64,000 nt of DNA from a virus (Duplodnaviria > Caudoviricetes), in the IMG/VR virus record IMGVR_UViG_3300025018_000138, positions 1 through 64,000 of that record. One strand, given 5' to 3'. Both the position numbers and the translations under genes were made by a program. Below, piece after piece: positions 25,546 through 45,949 of the stretch (its first letter is position 1; every line of letters begins with the position of its first letter). Below the pieces are notes generated by a model. The model had not been told where the DNA came from. It searched no databases and saw only the letters and a list, made by a program, of their open reading frames with translations.

Positions 25546-25581
25546 AAAAAAAGTCATGCACCTTTTCGAGATACATGACTT
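25546..25581 (-). terminator. Intrinsic terminator of leader A
   Basis: AAGTCATGTATC-TCGAAAAG-GTGCATGACTT followed by a U-run. Confidence 0.8.
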
Positions 25582-25612
25582 AAAATCTATTTAAAGTATA
25601 CACATATCTCTC

Positions 25613-25681
25613 TCAGCACAACAACGGTTGTGAATGTCTACGTAGACTTAAAGATGATAATATGTATGTTTTGTTTTCCAT
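25613..25681 (-). CDS. Putative leader peptide A, MENKTYILSSLSLRRHSQPLLC
   Basis: 22-codon ORF between a promoter-like tataat and the terminator, upstream of the Pro/Gln/Ser/Leu/Arg tRNA array. Confidence 0.7.
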   Translation of the reverse strand: MENKTYILSSLSLRRHSQPLLC

Positions 25682-26489
25682 GAATAGTAATTATAGTATT
25701 TTTTTATTTAAATCAATTTTTTCTTAAAAAAAATTAAAAATCTTTTTGGATGTCAATGTAATCGTCTCTATCCACATCAAGCAAGTCTTCTTCAAACTCA
25801 CGATTTAGAAAGGATTTAAACCTTTCTACTAAAGCTTTTTTAGTTGCTTTAACAGCATCTTCTTCCGCATTTACAAAATCAAAGGAATCGGGGATTGATG
25901 TTGTAGTTTCGATATTGGCAGAGTCAACTGTTTTAATAGTATCTTTTACTTTTAAAAGACCTTTTGCAGTCCATGTAATTTCAAATTTTGCTGATTTAAT
26001 CATAGTTTTTTTGTAATTTAGGGGATTGTGTTTTATTTTTGAATAGCAGGTGCAATTTGTATTGCTTCGATTAATTGTTCTAAGAATTTTTCATCAAATA
26101 CATCTTTAAGAGTAGTGATTCCTAATTTTTCTAAAATGTAAAATTCCATATGCGATGCCAATGCAGAATCTACAATTTGATTTAACAAATGTGCATTTTC
26201 TTGTGTAGGTTGATATCCTAACAGTGATGCTTTACGCATTAACGTTGCAACAACAATCTGTCTGATGTCATTAAACTCTTGCTTCATTTTAGGAATAGGA
26301 GCAAGTTTTGAGGATGGTTGGGTAATGGAAGATTCTTCAACTGTATCTATATCTGTATCTGTATCTGTATCATCGTCCGAAATGACGAGAGGAATTTGGT
26401 TTTCGGATACATCTTCGTTGATAGAATCTTCGTTGATAGAATCTAGGTCTAGTAATTTCATGTGTAAGTTTTTAAGTGTTTATAAAAGT

Positions 26490-35301: not shown

Positions 35302-35333
35302 AAAAAAGATTATTTCGTCTGTCGAAATAATCT
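35302..35333 (-). terminator. Intrinsic terminator after the CAT/Cys tRNA cluster
   Basis: AAAGATTATTTCG-ACAGA-CGAAATAATCTTT followed by a U-run. Confidence 0.75.
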
Positions 35334-36556: not shown

Positions 36557-38230
36557 TTAAATAACAATCGCTTTAATATCGTTGAGTACTGCTTTTGGGT
36601 CAAACTCAACTTTTTTAATCAGTTCATAGATATCTTGTGTATATCCTTCGAGAGAAAACACACGTGGGTGTTTACTATTAAACATTTCTGTTGGATAACC
36701 ACAAACATTTATACTATAAACATAGGTATTACCATTCAGTTTTTCATATTCTTTAAAAGAATTTATTACCGAATCTTTACCTTGCATATCACTAATGATA
36801 AATACTCTATCATATCGTCCTTTTAATGATGGAAAGATAGTATCAAACGCAGTACCATAACCAACAGACCCTTGTTTTGATGCAATTACTTTTTTAATAG
36901 TATTTACAGAATCCAAAGGATTTATATTAATAGGTTGAGTATAGTTTGCAAAATGATATACATCTGCATTTGTAGCTTTCGCTAAAGTTGATGCAACCAA
37001 TGATGCTTTTTCGATTGCTGATTTACTACCTTGTTTTTTATTTGCTAAAGTAATCAAACTTGTCATAGAACCTGAGCTATCTAATACTACAGCAGTTTTA
37101 CCTGTGAAGTAATCTTCTAAATTTGGTATTGATAATTCATATGCTTTATTTAATGCAGTTAATATTGAACCTAAATCACTTGGGCTATGTTCTTGTAACA
37201 GAAACTCCAATGCCAAATCTATTTGGTGTGGAAACACTAATGATTTTTTGATAAATTCTGGTTCAATTAGTAAAGCAGATACTTTTTCTTTTAATGTACT
37301 ATGTCCAAGTTTAATGATATTGTTTAAGTTTCTTAACAATGCCAAGTACCCAATTTTTTTAGTATCAATTAGCTCTACAAAATTTTCACCCTTTAAATCA
37401 TCCAATTCAACTTTAGCTTGCTCAACACTTAATTCACCTGATGCCACTTTTGCAGAAACATCTTGACCCGATTTGGTGTTTTTATCTTCAACAGTATTGA
37501 ACTGTTTTAATAAACCTAACGTTAATGCAAACAATGTTGGGATAGTTACTTCTCCATCATCACTAATATTTCTTGTTAGTTTATGTGCTTGTTCTTCATA
37601 TAATACATGCCCTTTGACTGCTTTAAGTAATTTAGCTTTAGGTACAGATACTACTCCTTGAATTTCGGTTTCCCGTGGGTGTACTAACTTGACAATATTC
37701 AATAAAGAAATACTAGAAGTTTTCAATTGGTATTTAGCCAATTGGTATTTATCAGCATTTTCAATCACAGATTTGAATCCACGTTTGATAGCATTTGATA
37801 ATTTCTTACCGTTATTTAATGCCATATATGCACCTGCGATTTCCATCATATCATCTAAACGATATACAACTCCACCGCGATTTTCACCACGAACACGTTT
37901 AGTGAAGAAATGAGTTCCTAATTCGGTACCACTAAGATATCTAGCTAATACTGCTGATGCAAAATGTGTTGTTGCACGTTGTCCTACGACTGAACGTACA
38001 TAAACAATTGCTTTGGCTACCAATTCTTTATCACCAATTTTATCAATTAATGATAATATTCGTGCTTCTCTTGTTTCACTTGTTTCATAAAATGTATTAT
38101 CTACACCTGTAGCAAGAATTCCTACTAATTCTACGATTGGGTCTTTTGCAAAACCGTTTCCGTTTTCATATGTAGTTACATTTGGTTCTGCTTTAGTAGC
38201 AGATACTTGGTGTGAGTTATATTTTCCCAT
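36557..38230 (-). CDS. rsr: TROVE-domain Ro60/Rsr RNA-binding protein with C-terminal vWA domain
   Basis: TFYET, YQLAKY, YLALLRNLNNI, VVLDSSGSM MIDAS, FIISDMQ. Confidence 0.9.
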   Translation of the reverse strand: MGKYNSHQVSATKAEPNVTTYENGNGFAKDPIVELVGILATGVDNTFYETSETREARILSLIDKIGDKELVAKAIVYVRSVVGQRATTHFASAVLARYLSGTELGTHFFTKRVRGENRGGVVYRLDDMMEIAGAYMALNNGKKLSNAIKRGFKSVIENADKYQLAKYQLKTSSISLLNIVKLVHPRETEIQGVVSVPKAKLLKAVKGHVLYEEQAHKLTRNISDDGEVTIPTLFALTLGLLKQFNTVEDKNTKSGQDVSAKVASGELSVEQAKVELDDLKGENFVELIDTKKIGYLALLRNLNNIIKLGHSTLKEKVSALLIEPEFIKKSLVFPHQIDLALEFLLQEHSPSDLGSILTALNKAYELSIPNLEDYFTGKTAVVLDSSGSMTSLITLANKKQGSKSAIEKASLVASTLAKATNADVYHFANYTQPININPLDSVNTIKKVIASKQGSVGYGTAFDTIFPSLKGRYDRVFIISDMQGKDSVINSFKEYEKLNGNTYVYSINVCGYPTEMFNSKHPRVFSLEGYTQDIYELIKKVEFDPKAVLNDIKAIVI

Positions 38231-38555: not shown

Positions 38556-38569
38556 AAAAAAAATAAAAT

Positions 38570-38642
38570 TTTCATCAAAAGGATTTGAGCCTTTATTTTA
38601 TCTCCGTAGAAGGGAGTTGTTCTACCATTGAACTATGATGAA
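38570..38642 (-). tRNA. Atypical tRNA-Arg(TCT)-like gene
   Basis: TTCATCA/TGATGAA, CTCC-CTTCTAC-GGAG, T loop CTCAAAT instead of TTC. Confidence 0.6.
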
Positions 38643-38647
38643 AATTG

Positions 38648-38720
38648 TACTCCTACAAGGAATCGAACCTTGATTTTTCTCCGTAGAAGGGAGATATTTT
38701 ACCATTAAAATATAAGGAAA
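38648..38720 (-). tRNA. Atypical tRNA-Arg(TCT)-like gene, weak acceptor stem
   Basis: TCTCC-CTTCTAC-GGAGA, CAAGG-TTCGATT-CCTTG; mismatched acceptor. Confidence 0.55.
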
Positions 38721-38725
38721 TATTG

Positions 38726-38798
38726 TACGTCTGATGGGGTTCGAACCCATGACTTATAGTTTAAAAGACTATTACTCTACCAACTGAGTTACAGACGT
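38726..38798 (-). tRNA. tRNA-Lys(TTT)
   Basis: ACGTCTG/CAGACGT, ATAGT-CTTTTAA-ACTAT. Confidence 0.93.
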
Positions 38799-38809
38799 AT
38801 ATTTTATTG

Positions 38810-38880
38810 TAGGAGTACAAGTAATCGAAACTTGATATATTGGATGTAAACCAATCGCTTTACCATTAAGCTATACTCCC
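38810..38880 (-). tRNA. tRNA-Val(TAC), T53-A61
   Basis: GGGAGTA/TACTCCT, ATTGG-TTTACAT-CCAAT, CAAGT-TTCGATT-ACTTG. Confidence 0.88.
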
Positions 38881-39064
38881 AAGTCGAAAACTCAGAACCA
38901 CATATTCTGAGTTTTCATGTAGTATTTATTCGATTTGATTTAATTGTATATTTTTCATCTTAGATTATTTATGTGATAATTGACCAAGAGTCTAAGATTA
39001 GTATTGATAAATTTTTTTTGATATATTTTTTGACATATATTCTTATTTATTTTATCTACTAAGT

Positions 39065-39300
39065 ATAAATCTGAGCCATTCTATTTACTTGGAATAGATT
39101 ACTTCGTCAGAAAGAAGTATCACCAAAATGCTTATATACCAATCGCATATGGTTTAAAGATTAACTCATGTGTTTATGCAGAAACCATGTGCATCTTTTG
39201 GCACATGTAGAGTTGTGATTTCAGTCACTCTAAAATCTGAAATTTCATCTGTATGCTTTCTTAAATACTAGTCACTGAAGACCATCGATACTATGTGTTC
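39065..39300 (-). ncRNA. Candidate multi-hairpin ncRNA
   Basis: No ORF of 60 aa or more; hairpins TAGAGT/ACTCTA, CATGTGC/GCACATG, TACTTC/GAAGTA, CTATT/AATAG. Confidence 0.4.
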
Positions 39301-39328
39301 ACGATTTTAATAATACAAATTACTTTTG

Positions 39329-39400
39329 CACTACGGGGGAATTTCGAAATCCCATGACAAGTTTTGGAGACCTGCATATTAGCCTTTATATGACCGCAGT
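39329..39400 (-). tRNA. tRNA-Trp(CCA), atypical T-stem closure
   Basis: ACTGCGG/CCGTAGT, CAGGT-CTCCAAA-ACTTG, GGGAT-TTCGAAA-TTCCC. Confidence 0.85.
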
Positions 39401-39445
39401 ATAAATGATACTTTTAGTATAATCAAAACATATCAGTATCCCACA

Positions 39446-39597
39446 TGAACTGTTTTTCATTTACAAGGAGTAGCAATTTACTACACATCTACCTTTTTAG
39501 TACATTAACGTGTACTACTTCGGAACAGTCCATAACGTTGATGTACAAAACGCTAACTCTTATCGTAAGTCAGAAACGCCATTTTAGCTATAGTTCA
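39446..39597 (-). ncRNA. Candidate multibranch ncRNA
   Basis: Closing TGAACT/AGTTCA; internal CTGACT/AGTTAG, AGTACA/TGTACT, GTAG/CTAC hairpins. Confidence 0.35.
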
Positions 39598-39616
39598 AAT
39601 GGTAACACATTGGATG

Positions 39617-39688
39617 TATCGCATACGAGAATCGAACTCGTGTCTCTACCTTGAAAGGGTAATGACTTAACCATTTGTCCAATGCGAC
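39617..39688 (-). tRNA. tRNA-Glu(TTC)
   Basis: GTCGCAT/ATGCGAT, TTACC-CTTTCAA-GGTAG. Confidence 0.92.
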
Positions 39689-39699
39689 ATATAAAAATA

Positions 39700-39826
39700 T
39701 AAAGAAATATCAAAACAGAATTTTTAGCGCTCTACCATTGAGCTACATGTCCCCATAAGGGACATGGTTGGACTCGAACCAACAACCACTCGTTTCAATA
39801 CGATGAAACTGTTTTTGTCACTATTA
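39700..39826 (-). ncRNA. yrlA: Y-RNA-like ncRNA 2, YrlA-type (permuted tRNA module)
   Basis: Order: stem, T arm GTTGG-TTCGAGT-CCAAC, loop-closed acceptor CATGTCCC/GGGACATG, D arm GCTC-AATGGTA-GAGC, stem; matches published YrlA topology; near the Ro60 gene. Confidence 0.85.
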
Positions 39827-39835
39827 TATTTTTTG

Positions 39836-39907
39836 CTCCCCAAGTAGGACTCGAACCTACAACCTATTGGTTAACAGCCAATTACTCTGCCATTGAGTTA
39901 TTGAGGA
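39836..39907 (-). tRNA. tRNA-Asn(GTT)
   Basis: TCCTCAA/TTGGGGA, ATTGG-CTGTTAA-CCAAT. Confidence 0.93.
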
Positions 39908-39916
39908 ATATATATG

Positions 39917-39989
39917 CGATGTTGATGGGATTCAAACCCACATAATCTTCGCTGACAACGAAGTGCATTAGTCATTATGCTACAACATC
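39917..39989 (-). tRNA. tRNA-Asp(GTC), T loop TTTGAAT
   Basis: GATGTTG/CAACATC, CTTCG-TTGTCAG-CGAAG. Confidence 0.88.
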
Positions 39990-40625
39990 ATTATGTTCAT
40001 GTTTTTCGTAGAATTTTATCCATTTTCTTATAGAATTATCTGAAACTCCATATTTTCTACCTGTAGCACTAAATCCTAATGATTTTGTGTCTTGTATTAA
40101 TATTTCATATGGTGGTCTGTTTCTTTTTCTATCTTTTTTTAATATTTCAATATTTATTTTTTTTTCTTTGAATGGGTTATTATTTTCATAATCATTTAAA
40201 TAATTTATTTTAAATTTTTCTTCATTTACTCTAATTGCTGTTTTATTTTCAATATCAGATGTAGATAAGAAAAAAATACCACCGCTTTTTACTACAATAA
40301 TAATATAATCTATTTTATTTTTATCAAAATATTTTCGTGTATTATTATATTTATTACCACCGCTAGTTGCAAGTGTTACTATCCAATTATTATTTTTATA
40401 AACACTTGTTGATTTGACTTGAACTTTTAGTAAGCAATTATCTTTTTCAATAATAAAATCATACGATTGATTTTCGTTTAATGGTTTAGATACTGTGTAT
40501 CCTTCTTTTATTAAGAAAGCTAAAGCGTATGCTTCACCAACATTACCTTTATCTTTTTGGGTTTTACAATTTTCAAATATATTCATGATATTAATTATAA
40601 TATATTTTATATTTTTGAACCCCAA
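39975..40625 (-). CDS. Free-standing PD-(D/E)XK endonuclease (group I intron-associated type) with C-terminal HTH
   Basis: KGNVGEAYA, QSYDFIIEK, KVQVKS; HTH GVSDNSIRKW. Confidence 0.8.
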   Translation of the reverse strand: MGFKNIKYIIINIMNIFENCKTQKDKGNVGEAYALAFLIKEGYTVSKPLNENQSYDFIIEKDNCLLKVQVKSTSVYKNNNWIVTLATSGGNKYNNTRKYFDKNKIDYIIIVVKSGGIFFLSTSDIENKTAIRVNEEKFKINYLNDYENNNPFKEKKINIEILKKDRKRNRPPYEILIQDTKSLGFSATGRKYGVSDNSIRKWIKFYEKHEHNDVVA

Positions 40626-40647
40626 AAATAAAATAAAATAATTTTTG

Positions 40648-40734
40648 TGCGGTTCGAAAGATTCGAACTTTACGCCACCAACCCCACTTAGTTTTTGACA
40701 ACAGTTTTACAGACTGCCGTGGGGAACGAACCGC
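40648..40734 (-). tRNA. Non-canonical tRNA-Tyr(GTA)-like gene (anticodon arm precedes D-like segment; 8/4 acceptor/T)
   Basis: GCGGTTCG/CGAACCGC, GCAGT-CTGTAAA-ACTGT, then AAC-TAAGTGGG-GTT, T arm AAAG-TTCGAAT-CTTT, A73. Confidence 0.75.
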
Positions 40735-40743
40735 AAATAAAAA

Positions 40744-40887
40744 CAAAGAAATTTATAATCAGTTGACCAACATTTCAACCCCCGTACTAATACTAATTAT
40801 ATTAACATTAGTACGGGGGGCAGGAATTGAACCTACGTTATAGCAAAGCATGATTTTGTACGAAGTATCTGATTTATTACGCTATTG
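40744..40887 (-). ncRNA. Y-RNA-like ncRNA 3, YrlA-type with extended closed acceptor
   Basis: T arm GTAGG-TTCAATT-CCTGC, 13-bp CCCCCGTACTAAT/ATTAGTACGGGGG, D-like TTGA-AATGTTGG-TCAA; family terminal motif. Confidence 0.75.
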
Positions 40888-40893
40888 TTTTTG

Positions 40894-40965
40894 TGCAGGA
40901 TAAGGGATTCGAACCCTTATAGCAAGTGTGGAAAACTTGAAGATTAACCATTATCGTAATCCTGC
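40894..40965 (-). tRNA. tRNA-Gly(TCC)
   Basis: GCAGGAT/ATCCTGC, CAAGT-TTTCCAC-ACTTG. Confidence 0.88.
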
Positions 40966-40974
40966 AAAGAATTA

Positions 40975-41055
40975 ATCAAAGAAATTTTAAATGAGCGTGT
41001 TTGTAGATGTTATGTTGTAGATAATTTACGATGAAACTCATTAAGTGCTATTGAT
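40975..41055 (-). ncRNA. Y-RNA-like ncRNA 4, minimal form
   Basis: ATCAATAGCACTTAATGAGTTTCATCGTA ... CTCATTTAAAATTTCTTTGAT; family motif with a short unstructured loop. Confidence 0.65.
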
Positions 41056-41061
41056 TAAGTG

Positions 41062-41136
41062 TACCCATAGATGGATTTGAACCATCGCATAACTGCGTAT
41101 CAGACAGTTGCCTTAACCAAGCTTGGCTATATGGGC
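41062..41136 (-). tRNA. tRNA-Ile(GAT)
   Basis: GCCCATA/TATGGGT, ACTGT-CTGATAC-GCAGT. Confidence 0.92.
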
Positions 41137-41148
41137 ATAATAAAATAA

Positions 41149-41270
41149 AAGGAGAAATATAAAAAGTGTGTTCCTCTTACGAGGTCGAGTGGAATTGAAC
41201 CACTGAAGTTTATTTTCAAGATAAATGCCCAACCATTGAGCTACGATGTAACACTTTTAAACGCTACCTT
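41149..41270 (-). ncRNA. Y-RNA-like ncRNA 5 enclosing unpermuted D, anticodon(TGA) and T arms
   Basis: Family stem AAAAGTGT/ACACTTTT; GCTC-AATGGTT-GGGC; TTTAT-CTTGAAA-ATAAA; AGTGG-TTCAATT-CCACT; only 3 bp of acceptor, then CCTC-GTAA-GAGG. Confidence 0.7.
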
Positions 41271-41275
41271 TTTTG

Positions 41276-41348
41276 AGCTTTCATTGGGAATCGAACCCAC
41301 TTCCTCGCTTTACAAGAGCGAACATCATCCAATAAATGTTTTGAAAGC
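41276..41348 (-). tRNA. tRNA-Thr(TGT)
   Basis: GCTTTCA/TGAAAGC, TCGCT-CTTGTAA-AGCGA. Confidence 0.9.
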
Positions 41349-41752
41349 TATTTTCTAGTTGTTCTAGAAGATTTTCTATTATTTATATTTTTGTACGTTT
41401 TGGTTAAAGAGTGACAATTCGGACATAATAATCTTAGATTTTCTCGCAAATTATTTTTAGCATCTCCATCTATATGGTCAATCTCTAATGGTATATTACC
41501 CGTAAATTCATTTATTTGTGACCAACCACATAATGAACATTTATTATCATTTTCTTCTAATAAAAATTTTCTTATCCAATTAGGAATGGTCAATCCATTA
41601 CCACGTAGATAATTTTTACCATTTAACCACATATTAATACGTTGATTCATTTGAAATTCTTGTTGACATTTATTATTACAAAAAATGTTATTATTAACAA
41701 TTTCATTATTACAAAATTTACAAGTTTTTTCCTTTTTTTCTCTTTTTCTCAT
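41348..41752 (-). CDS. Free-standing HNH endonuclease
   Basis: CSLCGW, LEIDHIDGD, NLRLLCPNCHS. Confidence 0.9.
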   Translation of the reverse strand: MRKREKKEKTCKFCNNEIVNNNIFCNNKCQQEFQMNQRINMWLNGKNYLRGNGLTIPNWIRKFLLEENDNKCSLCGWSQINEFTGNIPLEIDHIDGDAKNNLRENLRLLCPNCHSLTKTYKNINNRKSSRTTRK

Positions 41753-41813
41753 CGGTCAACCATTTTTATATATAATTATATGGTTTTCCAAAAAAATAAA
41801 AATTATATTATTG

Positions 41814-41888
41814 GGTGTCAGGTGGGACTTGAACCCACAAGGTACTAGAGTCACAATCTAGCGCATCTACCAATTCTGCTACAGACAC
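41814..41888 (-). tRNA. tRNA-His(GTG)
   Basis: CTAGA-TTGTGAC-TCTAG, C73; genomic -1 base is T, not G. Confidence 0.88.
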
Positions 41889-42008
41889 ATGTAAGTATTT
41901 AATAAATATATTAAGGATTCTGATACATACATAATTCAACACGTTACTACAATCCTTTTCACAGAGTTAGCAATGTATACATTACAGTATTTATTAGTGA
42001 TACTTTAG

Positions 42009-42080
42009 TGAAGTCTATAGGAATCGAACCTATACTCATGGGGCTTCAACCCATCGCTCTACCAATTGAGCTAAGACTCC
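42009..42080 (-). tRNA. tRNA-Phe(GAA)
   Basis: GGAGTCT/AGACTTC, ATGGG-TTGAAGC-CCCAT. Confidence 0.92.
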
Positions 42081-42083
42081 AAG

Positions 42084-42178
42084 TGCTTATGGCAAGAATC
42101 TCACTAGGAGTCTTGCACGAACTATTAATCGTTCTCATACCTTGTTAGGTATTTAGTGTCTAATTCCACCACATAAGC
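42084..42178 (-). pseudogene. tRNA-Leu-derived RNA with remodelled D, anticodon and T loops
   Basis: Intact acceptor GCTTATG/CATAAGC and variable arm; D loop lacks GG; 6-nt anticodon loop; T loop replaced by CTCCTAGTGAGAT. Confidence 0.6.
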
Positions 42179-42181
42179 TTG

Positions 42182-42254
42182 TGGAGACTGAGATAATCGA
42201 AATCTCCCAAACGGTATGCAAAACCGTTTCGCCAACCTTGGTACATTAGCCCCC
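42182..42254 (-). tRNA. tRNA-Ala(TGC), T53-A61
   Basis: GGGGGCT/AGTCTCC with G3-U70; loop TTTGCAT; GAGAT-TTCGATT-ATCTC. Confidence 0.88.
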
Positions 42255-42353
42255 TTTTTCTCAAGAGTTTACCAACCATTTTGGTTTTACTCTCGATTGC
42301 AAATAGTAAAAAAATACGTCAATGAACTGTTAGAAAGGTAAGAAGTTTTTTTA

Positions 42354-42509
42354 TTAAAAGTCAACAGATAATCTGCATTTATTTTTATTTGCTTCTTTTT
42401 TCTTGTCTACTACAACTTTAGGAGTAAATCTCCCATCGAAATAACCGACAGATTTTAGTTGTTCTCTAAAACCTTTTGTCTTCTTGTATGTAGTAGTATT
42501 TGTTTTCAT
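42354..42509 (-). CDS. Small basic protein (51 aa) at the head of tRNA array B
   Basis: MKTNTTTYKKTKGFREQLKSVGYFDGRFTPKVVVDKKKKQIKNKCRLSVDF; below the ORF-track cutoff. Confidence 0.6.
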   Translation of the reverse strand: MKTNTTTYKKTKGFREQLKSVGYFDGRFTPKVVVDKKKEANKNKCRLSVDF

Positions 42510-42555
42510 GATTATAAGATATGAAGTTATTTATTAAATATCAAGTGTTATAAAT

Positions 42556-42590
42556 AAAAAAGTCCAAATTTTTTTAGGGTTTGGACTTTT
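42556..42590 (-). terminator. Intrinsic terminator of leader B
   Basis: AAAAGTCCAAA-CCCTAAAAAAA-TTTGGACTTTT followed by further U residues. Confidence 0.8.
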
Positions 42591-42625
42591 ACAACTAATA
42601 ATCTGCGATACCTCAACCAAACCTA

Positions 42626-42709
42626 TTAGATATTCACCCCCTTCACAAAACCATAATGGTTGGTTGAATCGGTGTTATTATCCCAAATAAATGTTGTAGT
42701 TGTTTTCAT
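42626..42709 (-). CDS. Putative leader peptide B, MKTTTTFIWDNNTDSTNHYGFVKGVNI
   Basis: 27-codon ORF after the same aaaaaaatactataattacta context as leader A, followed by an antiterminator-compatible segment and a terminator. Confidence 0.7.
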   Translation of the reverse strand: MKTTTTFIWDNNTDSTNHYGFVKGVNI

Positions 42710-42718
42710 GATTAGTAA

Positions 42719-43585
42719 TTATAGTATTTTTTTATTAAAATCAAAAAAATCTTCAAAATTTTCAAAAATAATTTCTTTTTTAATATCATCATATACAATA
42801 AACTCAGTTGGATACATAAATAATGAAGTATCAGACATTATTAATGAAGGATTTAAATAATATGGTGAATGTAATGGGAGACCATGTATATTACTAGTAT
42901 GCCCGAATATTTGTATAATATTCTTATTTGTCGCAGTAGGAACAGTAATTTCTGATGGTCTCAGCCAAAAAATTCCTCCACACGATTTATATCCACCCGA
43001 TATATATCCAATGTCAAATAACGATTTAACTTCCGAATTTCTATTACCACTTGATAATACATATAGATACATATCATTTGTTAATGGTTTTAATGTTTCA
43101 TTAATATCATCGATAGTAATTTCTTCAAATGGTATATGTTTAGTATTAGGGAGTTGTTTAAATATATCCCCATCTAATCCTGCATGAGTACATAAAAGAT
43201 TATCGATTGAATGATAAAATTTTAAAATCTTTTTATCCATCATTTTTTCATAATATGGATAAAACGAAAATCCTGCACCTGCACTATACCCAGAACATTG
43301 AAATGGATTTTCCACATGTGGTTTAATCATATATTGTAAATCGTGATTACCGATTAGATATGTCATCTTTTCGGGTTCATATTCATACATCATAGTTTTT
43401 AATAACTCTTGTTGCTTTTTTCTACCAAACTCAGGGTTATGATTATTCCCCCAAGTCACTTGTCTATTATCTACATAATCGCCTAAAAATACTACTTTAT
43501 AGTCATCAGTTGATTTTATAAATTTATTAACTTTGTTAAATAAATTTATATTACCGTGTAAATCACCAAATATTATATGTTTCAT
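42719..43585 (-). CDS. Calcineurin-like metallophosphoesterase
   Basis: GDLHG, FLGDYVD, LIGNHD, THAG, IFGHT. Confidence 0.9.
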   Translation of the reverse strand: MKHIIFGDLHGNINLFNKVNKFIKSTDDYKVVFLGDYVDNRQVTWGNNHNPEFGRKKQQELLKTMMYEYEPEKMTYLIGNHDLQYMIKPHVENPFQCSGYSAGAGFSFYPYYEKMMDKKILKFYHSIDNLLCTHAGLDGDIFKQLPNTKHIPFEEITIDDINETLKPLTNDMYLYVLSSGNRNSEVKSLFDIGYISGGYKSCGGIFWLRPSEITVPTATNKNIIQIFGHTSNIHGLPLHSPYYLNPSLIMSDTSLFMYPTEFIVYDDIKKEIIFENFEDFFDFNKKIL

Positions 43586-44124
43586 TATTTTTTACTTATA
43601 TCAGTTTGATAGTATACTTTTCCGTGATGAAAAGTTTCTATATAGTCAATAGCTTTAAATATCAATAGTTTCCTTTCATCTTCGGTTGTTCGGGAAAACA
43701 ATAATACCATATTATCATATATGACAAATTTTTTCATGTAGTTATTAAGTTTACCCAATTTTCTGAGTAAATCTTCTTGTTTACTTACACGCATTCTATC
43801 CAATATTGCATACCGCATGTGTTCTTCAATCATCATCAATACATCACGTTTGATGTTAATTGGTATGAATTTTTTAGCATATTTTAATGATGCTTTTTCA
43901 TGTCCAAATGCAGTAGGAGTTCCATCTTCCTTATATTTCAAAGTATCAATTTTACCAAAATCGTGAAATAATGCCGTGTACAATAGTTCATCGGGTTCAT
44001 TATTTTCTAATGCTTGACCCAATACTAATAGAGTATGGGTTAATACATCACCTTCGGGATGATAATCCTTACGTTGGGGAGTATTCTGTAATTGTTTGAG
44101 TAAGTTTGTTAAGTCCATAATCAA
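43585..44124 (-). CDS. HD-domain protein (related to the HD domain of multifunctional CCA enzymes)
   Basis: HPEGDVLTHT, LFHDFGK, GHE, EHM. Confidence 0.8.
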   Translation of the reverse strand: MIMDLTNLLKQLQNTPQRKDYHPEGDVLTHTLLVLGQALENNEPDELLYTALFHDFGKIDTLKYKEDGTPTAFGHEKASLKYAKKFIPINIKRDVLMMIEEHMRYAILDRMRVSKQEDLLRKLGKLNNYMKKFVIYDNMVLLFSRTTEDERKLLIFKAIDYIETFHHGKVYYQTDISKK

Positions 44125-44158
44125 ATATATGAAGTATTACAGTATAATCAAAATAAAC

Positions 44159-44863
44159 TTAAATTTTATTTTTATACTTTTTGGAAAACTCAGCATAAGT
44201 CATTTCTTCTTCAGTATGAACTACCTTTTTAACACCTGATAATTTTTTAATATTGATGCTTTGTCCTTCATCACTTGGTAATAGATATCCATCGACATTA
44301 AGACTAAAGCTATGTCTTATTAAACGCTCTTGACCCATATTAGCGACAGATGATGCATTAGTAATATTCGGATAGGTCACACGAAGATAGTACCCATCGA
44401 TAGACCAATATTTTGATTCATTAAGTATGAATTGCTCTATGTTCTTATCATTATGTTTAACATAATTTGATACTATATCTACGGTATAATTAGCAGTGAT
44501 TTTAACAGGTAATCGTGGTAATACATATTGAACGTTTTCATTATCTTCGAATGAAGGAGTATTATATTTCAATAGTTCATAACGCAATAAATCATTGGGG
44601 AGCCAATGTGGAAAACGATTCTTTTCAATTTCCAATGAGTCTCTGTTTAATAATATTAGAGGAAGAATATATAATTCACCCGATTGGTCTTTCTCCTCAT
44701 CATTTTTCAATAATTTAGCCCAACGTTCTTGGTTCTTAAAATCTACTCTAGTTTTAGTACCATCTGTAAATGTTGTAGCAATATGATTTTCTATATAGGT
44801 TTTAATTGCTAAATCTATATCAATTAGTTCAATGTCTACATTTGTATTAATAAAATCGCTCAT
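44159..44863 (-). CDS. Putative virion structural (tail/neck-completion-like) protein
   Basis: Overall pattern recalls phage tail-terminator-like proteins; weak. Confidence 0.35.
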   Translation of the reverse strand: MSDFINTNVDIELIDIDLAIKTYIENHIATTFTDGTKTRVDFKNQERWAKLLKNDEEKDQSGELYILPLILLNRDSLEIEKNRFPHWLPNDLLRYELLKYNTPSFEDNENVQYVLPRLPVKITANYTVDIVSNYVKHNDKNIEQFILNESKYWSIDGYYLRVTYPNITNASSVANMGQERLIRHSFSLNVDGYLLPSDEGQSINIKKLSGVKKVVHTEEEMTYAEFSKKYKNKI

Positions 44864-44882
44864 ACTATTAAGTATAGATTAT

Positions 44883-45572
44883 TTATAATTTAAGTATTGC
44901 TATTGTAGTTATCATACCCGTTGATAATCCAACCCAAAACCAATAAAAAGACTTTTTTTGTTTCAAGGTTGTTTTATTCGTTATATTTAATTCTACAAAA
45001 TCTGTTGATGAAATATATGAGATTACAGTAGATTGGTCATCGGATACTGTTGAAGTAATTTGTATATTTATATCTCGCAATTGTACCAAATCTATTTCAT
45101 TAGTCATAGTATTATCTTTTATATCAACTTTAGAATTTACCATTATCAAACTATCACCAAATGTATTCGATGTAGTTATTGTGGTATCTGTAATTTTATT
45201 ATTAATTATTTCTAAATCTCTTTTTACCAATGGTAATGAATCTGCTATTGTAAATCCATCTAAAAATTTTAATGAATCAATTGTTTTTTTTAAATTATCA
45301 TTGTTTAATCGCAATCTACCTGTTAAGTTAGATAAAGAAAATATTTTCATATCACTATCTTTAATCTTTTGGACAAATTCTTTCGATAAGTCTTTATATA
45401 AATTTTGTTGAGTTTCATATTGTGCAACAGATACCCATTTGGTTGAATCAATTTGTTCAGTTTTTACTTCATATGTCATACGAGGGAAATATTTTGTAGT
45501 GATGTGCCAACTGAATACCGTTATAAAAATAGACCAAGCAAAAAAAATAGTTAAAAGTATACGTTTGTTCAT
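44883..45572 (-). CDS. Membrane protein with N- and C-terminal TM segments
   Basis: Hydrophobic termini, coiled-coil-like middle. Confidence 0.5.
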   Translation of the reverse strand: MNKRILLTIFFAWSIFITVFSWHITTKYFPRMTYEVKTEQIDSTKWVSVAQYETQQNLYKDLSKEFVQKIKDSDMKIFSLSNLTGRLRLNNDNLKKTIDSLKFLDGFTIADSLPLVKRDLEIINNKITDTTITTSNTFGDSLIMVNSKVDIKDNTMTNEIDLVQLRDINIQITSTVSDDQSTVISYISSTDFVELNITNKTTLKQKKSFYWFWVGLSTGMITTIAILKL

Positions 45573-45949
45573 AATATTATAATTTAAAATAAAAAAGCCA
45601 CTGCTTATTACAACAGTAGCTTTAATTATAAATTATATTTTTTATTGTTAAAAAAATCTTGATATAAGTAAATTAAATCGAAATATAAGTTTTCCTAAAT
45701 CTGTTTTGATATTAGAATCTTTTTCGATTAATTCTTTAATTACGAAATACCACCATGCGATAATTGATACCATAGCGATACCAACGAAATGTTCTTTATT
45801 TTTATTACCCCACGTTTTCACATTCACGTATAAAAAAAATAAAAAAGCACATATTAAGTATAGATTGAGTAACATAGGAGTTAAAATTAGTTGTTAATTG
45901 TTTAGTGGATATTAAATATACGAAAATTTTATTTTTTATCAAAAAAAAA

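Follow-up and report, generated by a model that had tools for sequence, protein, structure and literature searches.

The stretch of viral DNA analysed here (the window; 28% G+C) covers positions 1 to 64,000 of the IMG/VR record IMGVR_UViG_3300025018_000138, a phage contig of 74.8 kb judged to be about 36% complete. The subject of this study is a small unit, consisting of a promoter-like block, a very short open reading frame (ORF) and an intrinsic terminator, that precedes one of the transfer RNA (tRNA) arrays of this phage; all features of the unit lie on the minus strand. The ORF, here termed leader B (MKTTTTFIWDNNTDSTNHYGFVKGVNI; 42709..42626), begins with ATG, has 27 codons plus TAA and lies 372 nucleotides (nt) upstream of tRNA-Ala on the same strand. 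This tRNA gene opens array B (38569..42254, minus strand), in which the order is Ala, Phe, His, an HNH gene, Thr, Ile, Gly, a PD-(D/E)XK gene, Asp, Asn, Glu, Trp, Val, Lys, Arg and Arg. The promoter-like block, P1 (TTGATTTTAATAAAAAAATACTATAATTACTAATC; 42710..42744), abuts the ATG of leader B, so that the 5′ untranslated region (UTR) would be only about 0–4 nt long. Shine–Dalgarno motifs are present at 10 of 62 phage genes, most genes doing without one, and the lack of such a motif before leader B is therefore no argument against its translation.

The region downstream of the leader B stop codon has the parts of a four-region transcription attenuator. An intrinsic terminator (42552..42590), with the stem AAAAGUCCAAA / UUUGGACUUUU, an 11-nt loop and a T-run, is preceded by two strands that can pair with each other. 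Region 1, the anti-antiterminator strand (UUCAACCAACCAUUAU; 42653..42668), spans codons 14/15–19 of the ORF and pairs with region 2, the antiterminator strand (AGGUUUGGU; 42616..42624), which occupies positions +4..+12 from the first base of the stop codon, that is, inside the footprint of a terminating ribosome. Region 2 in turn can pair with region 3, the 5′ arm of the terminator. The sequence TAGGTTTGG (42625..42617) begins one base past the stop; the terminator hairpin proper (42590..42558, −10.1 kcal/mol), followed by the T-run, starts 36 nt past it, and 308 nt separate the terminator from array B.

A sister unit, leader A (25546..25716, minus strand), combines the same three elements. 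Its 22-codon ORF (MENKTYILSSLSLRRHSQPLLC; 25681..25613) is followed by a strong terminator (25581..25550, −15.9 kcal/mol) and by array A, which encodes tRNAs for Pro, Gln, Ser, Leu, Leu and Arg and whose tRNA-Pro (from 25503) starts about 45 nt past the terminator hairpin. The promoter-like block before leader A (25682..25716), which lies in intergenic DNA, is identical to P1 at 38 of 40 bases, in keeping with an earlier reading made from the sequence only, in which the contexts upstream of both leaders were described as nearly identical. The P1 20-mer occurs at these two leader sites alone within the 74.8-kb record, and the pattern TTGAYW-N14-17-TATAATTA has three matches where 0.35 would be expected.

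The codon content of leader B follows the isotypes of array B. Among its residues, 24 of 26 belong to the array B isotype set (binomial P = 0.008), and 24 of 26 codons can be read by array B anticodons, against an expected fraction of 0.68 (P = 0.004). Across the 344 small ORFs in the window (ATG start, 18–40 codons, six frames), leader B is the most array-B-like. Ten isotypes are matched between leader and array; the sequence-only reading had counted eleven by including Tyr, for which neither ARAGORN nor Rfam finds a tRNA in the record, whether inside the window or beyond it, and it had overlooked a single Ser codon (TCA). It had correctly named Ala and Glu as unrepresented in the leader, to which the Arg tRNAs of array B have to be added. 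Its statement that leader B avoids the amino acids of array A stands for Leu, Arg, Gln and Pro, whose complete absence has a chance of 0.005 given the amino-acid use of the phage, and fails for the one Ser codon, Ser being an array A isotype.

Leader A mirrors array A in the same manner: 13 of its 21 residues are Pro, Gln, Ser, Leu or Arg (P = 3e-4), and it is one of only two among the 344 small ORFs to be so rich in them. The amino acids are thus split between the two leaders according to the arrays behind them (Fisher exact P = 2.9e-5 within the window), as the sequence-only reading had proposed, and the same division recurs in a separate lineage (L028/L035/L070), where two leaders and two arrays again have reciprocal compositions. 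Since two lineages each have two leaders of opposite composition in one genome, base composition cannot explain the match. A near relative from a metagenome scan (L072) keeps leader A with a single coding change, His to Pro; the His is the only non-matching core residue of leader A, and Pro is an array A isotype. In the same contig (1-420, minus strand), the terminator stem of leader A carries one G·U to A-U change, and the terminator is followed by a promoter (TTGACT-N17-TATATT) and, in place of the tRNA-Pro of the window, by a protein gene; no tRNA is reached before the contig ends.

Minimum-energy folds and duplex energies recover the four-region anatomy in both leaders. For leader B, the 1:2, 2:3 and terminator pairings have energies of −17.9, −10.3 and −10.1 kcal/mol, respectively; for leader A, the corresponding values are −12.9, −12.7 and −15.9 kcal/mol. 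The 1:2 pairing of leader B, between codons 14–19 and the post-stop strand, is present in the minimum-energy fold, its duplex energy being a value not controlled by shuffling. The 2:3 duplex (GGUUUGG/CCAAACC), which had been predicted from the sequence as a pairing between the post-stop strand and the terminator arm, comprises seven contiguous pairs and is better than expected from shuffles of the stop-to-hairpin spacer (P = 0.013). In a co-transcriptional folding model, in which transcripts were cut at the terminator loop and the ribosome was represented by a 28-nt mask, leader A has a predicted antiterminator probability of 0.98 for stalls at most of codons 2–20 (0.54 at codon 18), which declines to about 0.6 close to the stop. 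Leader B, modelled likewise, has an antiterminator probability of about 0.5 for stalls at codons 1–9, 0.25 at codons 11–18 and 0.09 from codon 21 to the stop. Taken alone, the folding support for leader B is modest.

Further evidence comes from relatives. A Ro-like gene (Ro60-like, TROVE; 36557..38230, minus strand) lies inside the tRNA region of the window, and 67 viral contigs, many of them 100–430 kb long, carry a Ro-like gene at 43–52% identity; in most of these contigs, large tRNA arrays adjoin it. A scan for units of the leader type (a small ATG ORF whose stop lies 5–45 nt before a hairpin with T-run, and a tRNA within 500 nt) recovered both leaders of the window together with a recurrent set in the relatives, in which a small ORF, a terminator and a tRNA array follow one another. 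Examples are MSQIQYILDTLHLDHTSSTCESSIVMRREY, before Ser, Ser, Thr, Cys, His, Leu, Ser, Asp, Met and Glu; MKTTFRNNVKPFMPQSVAPFNQVGIAKWYNGYSKGSGGHDII, before Pro, Trp, Gln, Lys, Tyr, Asn, Phe, Gly, Met, Ala and Val; MIRNYTYNFSQLPEQCEQLPLFYFL..., before Cys, Gln, Phe, Leu, Pro, Tyr and Glu; and MILCYIYEVLCQLPQRGYLPLLYLP..., before Gln, Leu, Pro and Tyr. Leaders in front of near-complete arrays contain all 20 amino acids. When all 10 non-redundant units with partial arrays were considered, probable false positives included, leader and array compositions matched with a Fisher combined P of 4.9e-14. Permuting the arrays among these leaders, a comparison across phages that the sequence-only reading had suggested, gave P = 2e-5.

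The switch itself also recurs. The best duplex between the terminator 5′ arm and the final 30 nt of the ORF together with the spacer was computed for 20 units of the leader type and, from the same loci, for 37 terminators at ordinary gene ends; in the relatives, the upstream strand sits inside the ORF. The mean antiterminator duplex energy is −11.4 kcal/mol for leaders, against −5.4 kcal/mol for ordinary gene-end terminators (Mann–Whitney P = 3e-6), and the mean shuffle z-scores are −2.3 and +0.1, respectively (P = 4e-7). The attenuator anatomy suggested for leader B is thereby borne out more widely, with an ORF-end strand that pairs with the terminator 5′ arm here and in 14 related leaders and with no such pairing at ordinary gene-end terminators. 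This strand is formed by the last 2–10 codons in the relatives and lies at +4..+12/+22 after the stop in the window, that is, always where a finishing ribosome would melt or cover it. The leader peptides are unrelated in sequence between lineages, which is what one would expect were it the codon content and not the peptide that counts. Searches by tblastn with three peptides against related loci gave nothing significant. In several relatives, the first tRNA lies 8–38 nt past the T-run. Directly past some leader terminators (L011 5512-5590; L017 2740-2840; L024 585-685), there are tRNA-shaped genes that ARAGORN missed, one Phe-like with anticodon GAA and the others Ser-like with a long variable arm; the real gap between terminator and first tRNA is therefore shorter there than listed.

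On these grounds, leader B is probably (at roughly 0.72) a ribosome-mediated, leader-peptide transcription attenuator that stands before a phage tRNA array and senses the tRNA pool. The anatomy and the statistics are computational observations, from which we infer translation, termination, the direction of the response and its natural trigger. Transcription starting at P1 would yield a messenger RNA almost without a 5′ UTR, on which the 27-codon ORF would be translated immediately. With fast decoding, the ribosome would reach the stop codon and cover GGUUUGG, allowing the terminator hairpin to form and transcription to end at about 42556. If a tRNA supplied by the array were scarce, the ribosome would stall somewhere between codon 2 and about codon 24, leaving the post-stop strand free to pair with the terminator 5′ arm; with the antiterminator formed, RNA polymerase would continue through a 51-codon ORF into the tRNA genes. 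The fresh tRNAs would lift the stall, which would make the loop self-limiting. On a transcript carrying no ribosome, region 1 would sequester region 2, such that termination would be the default. Leader A would likewise control the Pro/Gln/Ser/Leu/Arg array, giving one sensor per array, each written in the isotypes of its own array.

The likely trigger is not amino-acid supply but a loss of host tRNAs in the course of infection, brought about by defences that cleave tRNAs or by host shut-off. For the large phages of this group as a whole, we lean, less firmly than for leader B itself, towards a general arrangement in which tRNA genes are sorted by isotype into blocks, each behind a leader that samples exactly those isotypes, as a demand-driven supply. 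A drop in any one isotype, for instance after the action of a host anticodon nuclease or after host shut-off, would stall the ribosome and open the matching block, and the new tRNAs would close it again.

Several observations weigh against an attenuator at leader B. The antiterminator duplex is unexceptional (z = −0.97) when the wider region of 30 nt plus spacer is shuffled, and the modelled antiterminator occupancy is only 0.25 for stalls at codons 11–18. The terminator stem is A/U-rich, with a loop of 11 nt. At equilibrium, the terminator stays formed with a probability of 0.92 at every ribosome position. As the full hairpin is favoured everywhere at equilibrium, the argument for leader B rests on kinetics, on which many true attenuators likewise depend. 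The codon match is imperfect in both directions, given the unmatched Ser and Tyr codons and the Ala, Glu and Arg tRNAs that the leader does not sample. There are 1–6 codons per isotype and no single-codon tandem run beyond ThrThrThrThr, unlike in his and trp leaders. Amino-acid starvation would also flip the same switch without benefit to the phage.

A further objection is a second promoter candidate behind the terminator. This element, P2 (TTGATA-N17-TATCTT; 42544..42516, minus strand), had been entered as a caveat in the sequence-only reading, and the caveat has grown stronger: P2 is a diverged, colinear copy of P1 that aligns to it gap-free, retains the same TTGAT-to-ATG spacing and heads the 51-codon ORF (MKTNTTTYKK...; 42354..42509, minus strand), whose start, TAATCATGAAAACAA, is identical to that of leader B and which lies between the leader B terminator and tRNA-Ala. 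The sole contig from an RNA library (a metatranscriptome) covers 42489..42251, from inside the 51-codon ORF to the 5′ end of tRNA-Ala, and thus the P2 side only. The 5′ end of a tRNA is where RNase P would cut. This contig gives a weak hint that fits entry into the array from P2 as well as read-through, and it is uninformative on leader B. Array B can probably also be transcribed without read-through, bypassing the attenuator; P2 may provide a basal input that the attenuator modulates or adds to. At leader A and in several relatives, the terminator and the first tRNA lie too close together to accommodate a second promoter.

The 51-codon ORF itself is Lys/Thr-rich and is headed by what looks like a third copy of the promoter/start cassette. 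Neither a Pfam family nor, among the related loci, any relative was found for it. It was considered as a second codon-matched leader and rejected, as the fraction of its residues within the array set (41 of 50) is not significant and no terminator follows. P2 and this ORF together may be a decayed or repurposed leader.

These features lend themselves to a simpler account, in which the hairpin (42590..42558) does no more than terminate transcription of the operon upstream (genes 45572..42719), the short ORF is incidental and array B is driven by P2 or another downstream promoter. The nearest terminator upstream is at 45623..45594, and the four upstream genes therefore need a stop signal; P2 is well spaced for a start at the first codon of the 51-codon ORF, the RNA-library contig lies on the P2 side only, and the folding model for leader B is weak. 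We nevertheless regard this account as unlikely, although it is the best of the alternatives. It leaves unexplained the codon match of leader B, the presence of the 38/40 block in intergenic DNA before leader A and the reciprocal composition of the latter. It also does not account for the family-wide match or for the antiterminator signal, which ordinary gene-end terminators lack, and the 8–38 nt between T-run and tRNA in several relatives offer no room for another promoter.

A less probable alternative still is that the ORF is translated and does sense decoding speed, with an output other than the hairpin switch, namely the 51-codon ORF, RNA stability or processing, or Rho. The position of the 51-codon ORF directly behind the terminator, the start sequence that it shares with the leader and the marginal energetics of the leader B hairpin switch would all be accommodated. 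However, leader A and most of the related leaders adjoin their tRNAs directly, with no ORF between, and the antiterminator signal is specific to the terminator 5′ arm. That the small ORFs encode functional micropeptides, their isotype likeness being a by-product, is very improbable: one leader sub-family (L004/L005/L011/L018) does conserve the motif W-ERR-TL-LGYCF...QGKP and many leaders start with MKT, yet the peptides are unrelated across lineages while each matches its own array, the neighbouring small ORF has no Pfam family, and a peptide function would not predict complementarity to a terminator arm.

Near-identical DNA is present in many aquifer metagenomes and in one cold-spring metagenome, and the metagenome DNA contigs show no differences in leader B. 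A metagenome scan with the promoter/start pattern returned an unrelated locus (L071) and the near relative L072, which has leader A only, and no variant of leader B; scanning viral contigs with the P1 20-mer gave one unrelated match in a giant virus. Pieces of 35–48 nt, 85–90% alike to P1 plus its upstream bases (42711-42790), occur at higher depth in other contigs of the same aquifer metagenomes (X12, X19, X5), and the P1 cassette may head further units in co-occurring phages. Immediately upstream of leader B lies a metallophosphatase gene (43585..42719, minus strand), whose stop codon falls inside the TATAAT of P1. Homologues of the metallophosphatase are known at 92% and 43% identity from a protein search, and scanning viral contigs with this protein found no relative.

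DNA-level searches of cultured phages gave matches to tRNAs only. The search with the Ro-like protein found no close cultured relative, the best match being an uncultured megaphage (32% identity), followed by Vibrio and Streptomyces phages at about 24%. For Vibrio phage Va1, an annotation table restricted to protein genes, taken without a tRNA scan, lists no tRNA up to 20 kb away from the Ro-like gene. Several of the contigs with a Ro-like gene (loci L004-L070) also carry transfer-messenger RNA genes and tRNAs with a CUA anticodon (amber suppressors), a hint that some relatives may recode stop codons.

Within array B, the HNH gene (41348-41752) and the PD-(D/E)XK endonuclease gene (39975-40625), both on the minus strand, probably represent homing endonucleases that invaded the tRNA region. 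A degenerate tRNA-like gene (41185-41246, minus strand), detected by Rfam only, has a short variable arm, a mismatched acceptor stem and the anticodon UGA, which reads UCA, the one Ser codon of leader B counted above as unmatched. After the start of array B, the terminator scan found only two weak hairpins (41241..41227 and 40683..40639), both in tRNA-like sequence, before the first clean terminator at 35333..35307, and the Ro-like gene and the Met and Cys tRNAs may therefore be in the same transcript as array B. Two identical 48-nt hairpins (23725-23678 and 23166-23119, minus strand) share a T-arm-like core, CAAGATTCGAATCTTG, and a third, similar element (40683-40639, minus strand) lies upstream of the PD-(D/E)XK gene; these elements may be repeated tRNA fragments or mini-helices.

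To our knowledge, the control of phage tRNA genes is largely uncharted. Why phages carry such genes has been debated for decades, with codon compensation opposed to escape from tRNA-targeting defences (PMC10264068). A leader written in the isotypes of its array predicts on-demand synthesis of the phage tRNAs, one block at a time, whenever their codons are decoded slowly. Classical attenuation would thereby be extended in two ways, with RNA products being regulated and up to ten isotypes being sensed together. If this is true, leader B would be the first attenuator to sense the product of its own genes and would act as a multi-channel sensor of the tRNA pool. Such leaders would mark the tRNAs that a phage expects to lose, and they could serve as compact natural tRNA-pool sensors.

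No publication describing tRNA genes under leader-peptide attenuation came up in full-text literature searches. Searching leader B against Rfam leader families (Thr_leader, His_leader, Leu_leader, Trp_leader and others) gave only Thr_leader, whose 17.7 bits (E = 0.91) fall short of the cut-off of 55; leader A matched no Rfam leader family, and across the whole window Rfam reported tRNA matches only, with no T-box. T-box leaders bind uncharged tRNA directly, need no ORF and control aminoacyl-tRNA synthetase and amino-acid genes. The phage leaders resemble them as cis-acting leader RNAs with a terminator/antiterminator switch that answers to the tRNA pool, and differ in working through an ORF and in having tRNAs as the regulated genes.

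The nearest concept in print is the trn operon of Anabaena sp. PCC 7120, a long array of accessory tRNA genes that stays silent under normal conditions and is switched on when translation is impaired (PMC8421152; PMC10272220). It shares induction by translational stress with what is proposed for the phage array, although its control is exerted at the promoter level, through direct repeats (PMC8421152) and the repressor TrcR (PMC10272220), and the terms attenuat-, leader peptide and terminator are absent from the 2021 paper (PMC8421152). Leaderless polycysteine short ORFs of mycobacteria, described as Cys-responsive attenuators (bioRxiv 10.1101/834739), are similar in that the codon content of a leaderless ORF senses supply and controls an operon, and differ in responding to one amino acid, in regulating Cys-related protein genes and in being cellular rather than phage-borne.

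The closest mechanistic counterparts are the leader-peptide attenuators of enterobacteria, among them the multivalent leaders of thr (Thr and Ile) and ilvGMEDA (Ile, Leu and Val) as well as those of trp, his, leu and pheA. As in these systems, a short leader ORF is rich in regulatory codons and is separated from the genes under control by an intrinsic terminator; a ribosome arriving at the end of the ORF would occlude an antiterminator strand, and a 1:2 pairing would lead to default termination. Unlike in enterobacteria, the targets in the phage are tRNAs rather than biosynthetic enzymes, such that what is sensed would also be what is produced. The leader samples as many as 10 isotypes, for the most part through 1–6 scattered codons instead of runs; it would start with next to no 5′ UTR, and neither by sequence nor in Rfam does it belong to a known family. 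The design would be that of classical attenuation, combined with a new class of regulated genes, multi-isotype sensing and product feedback.

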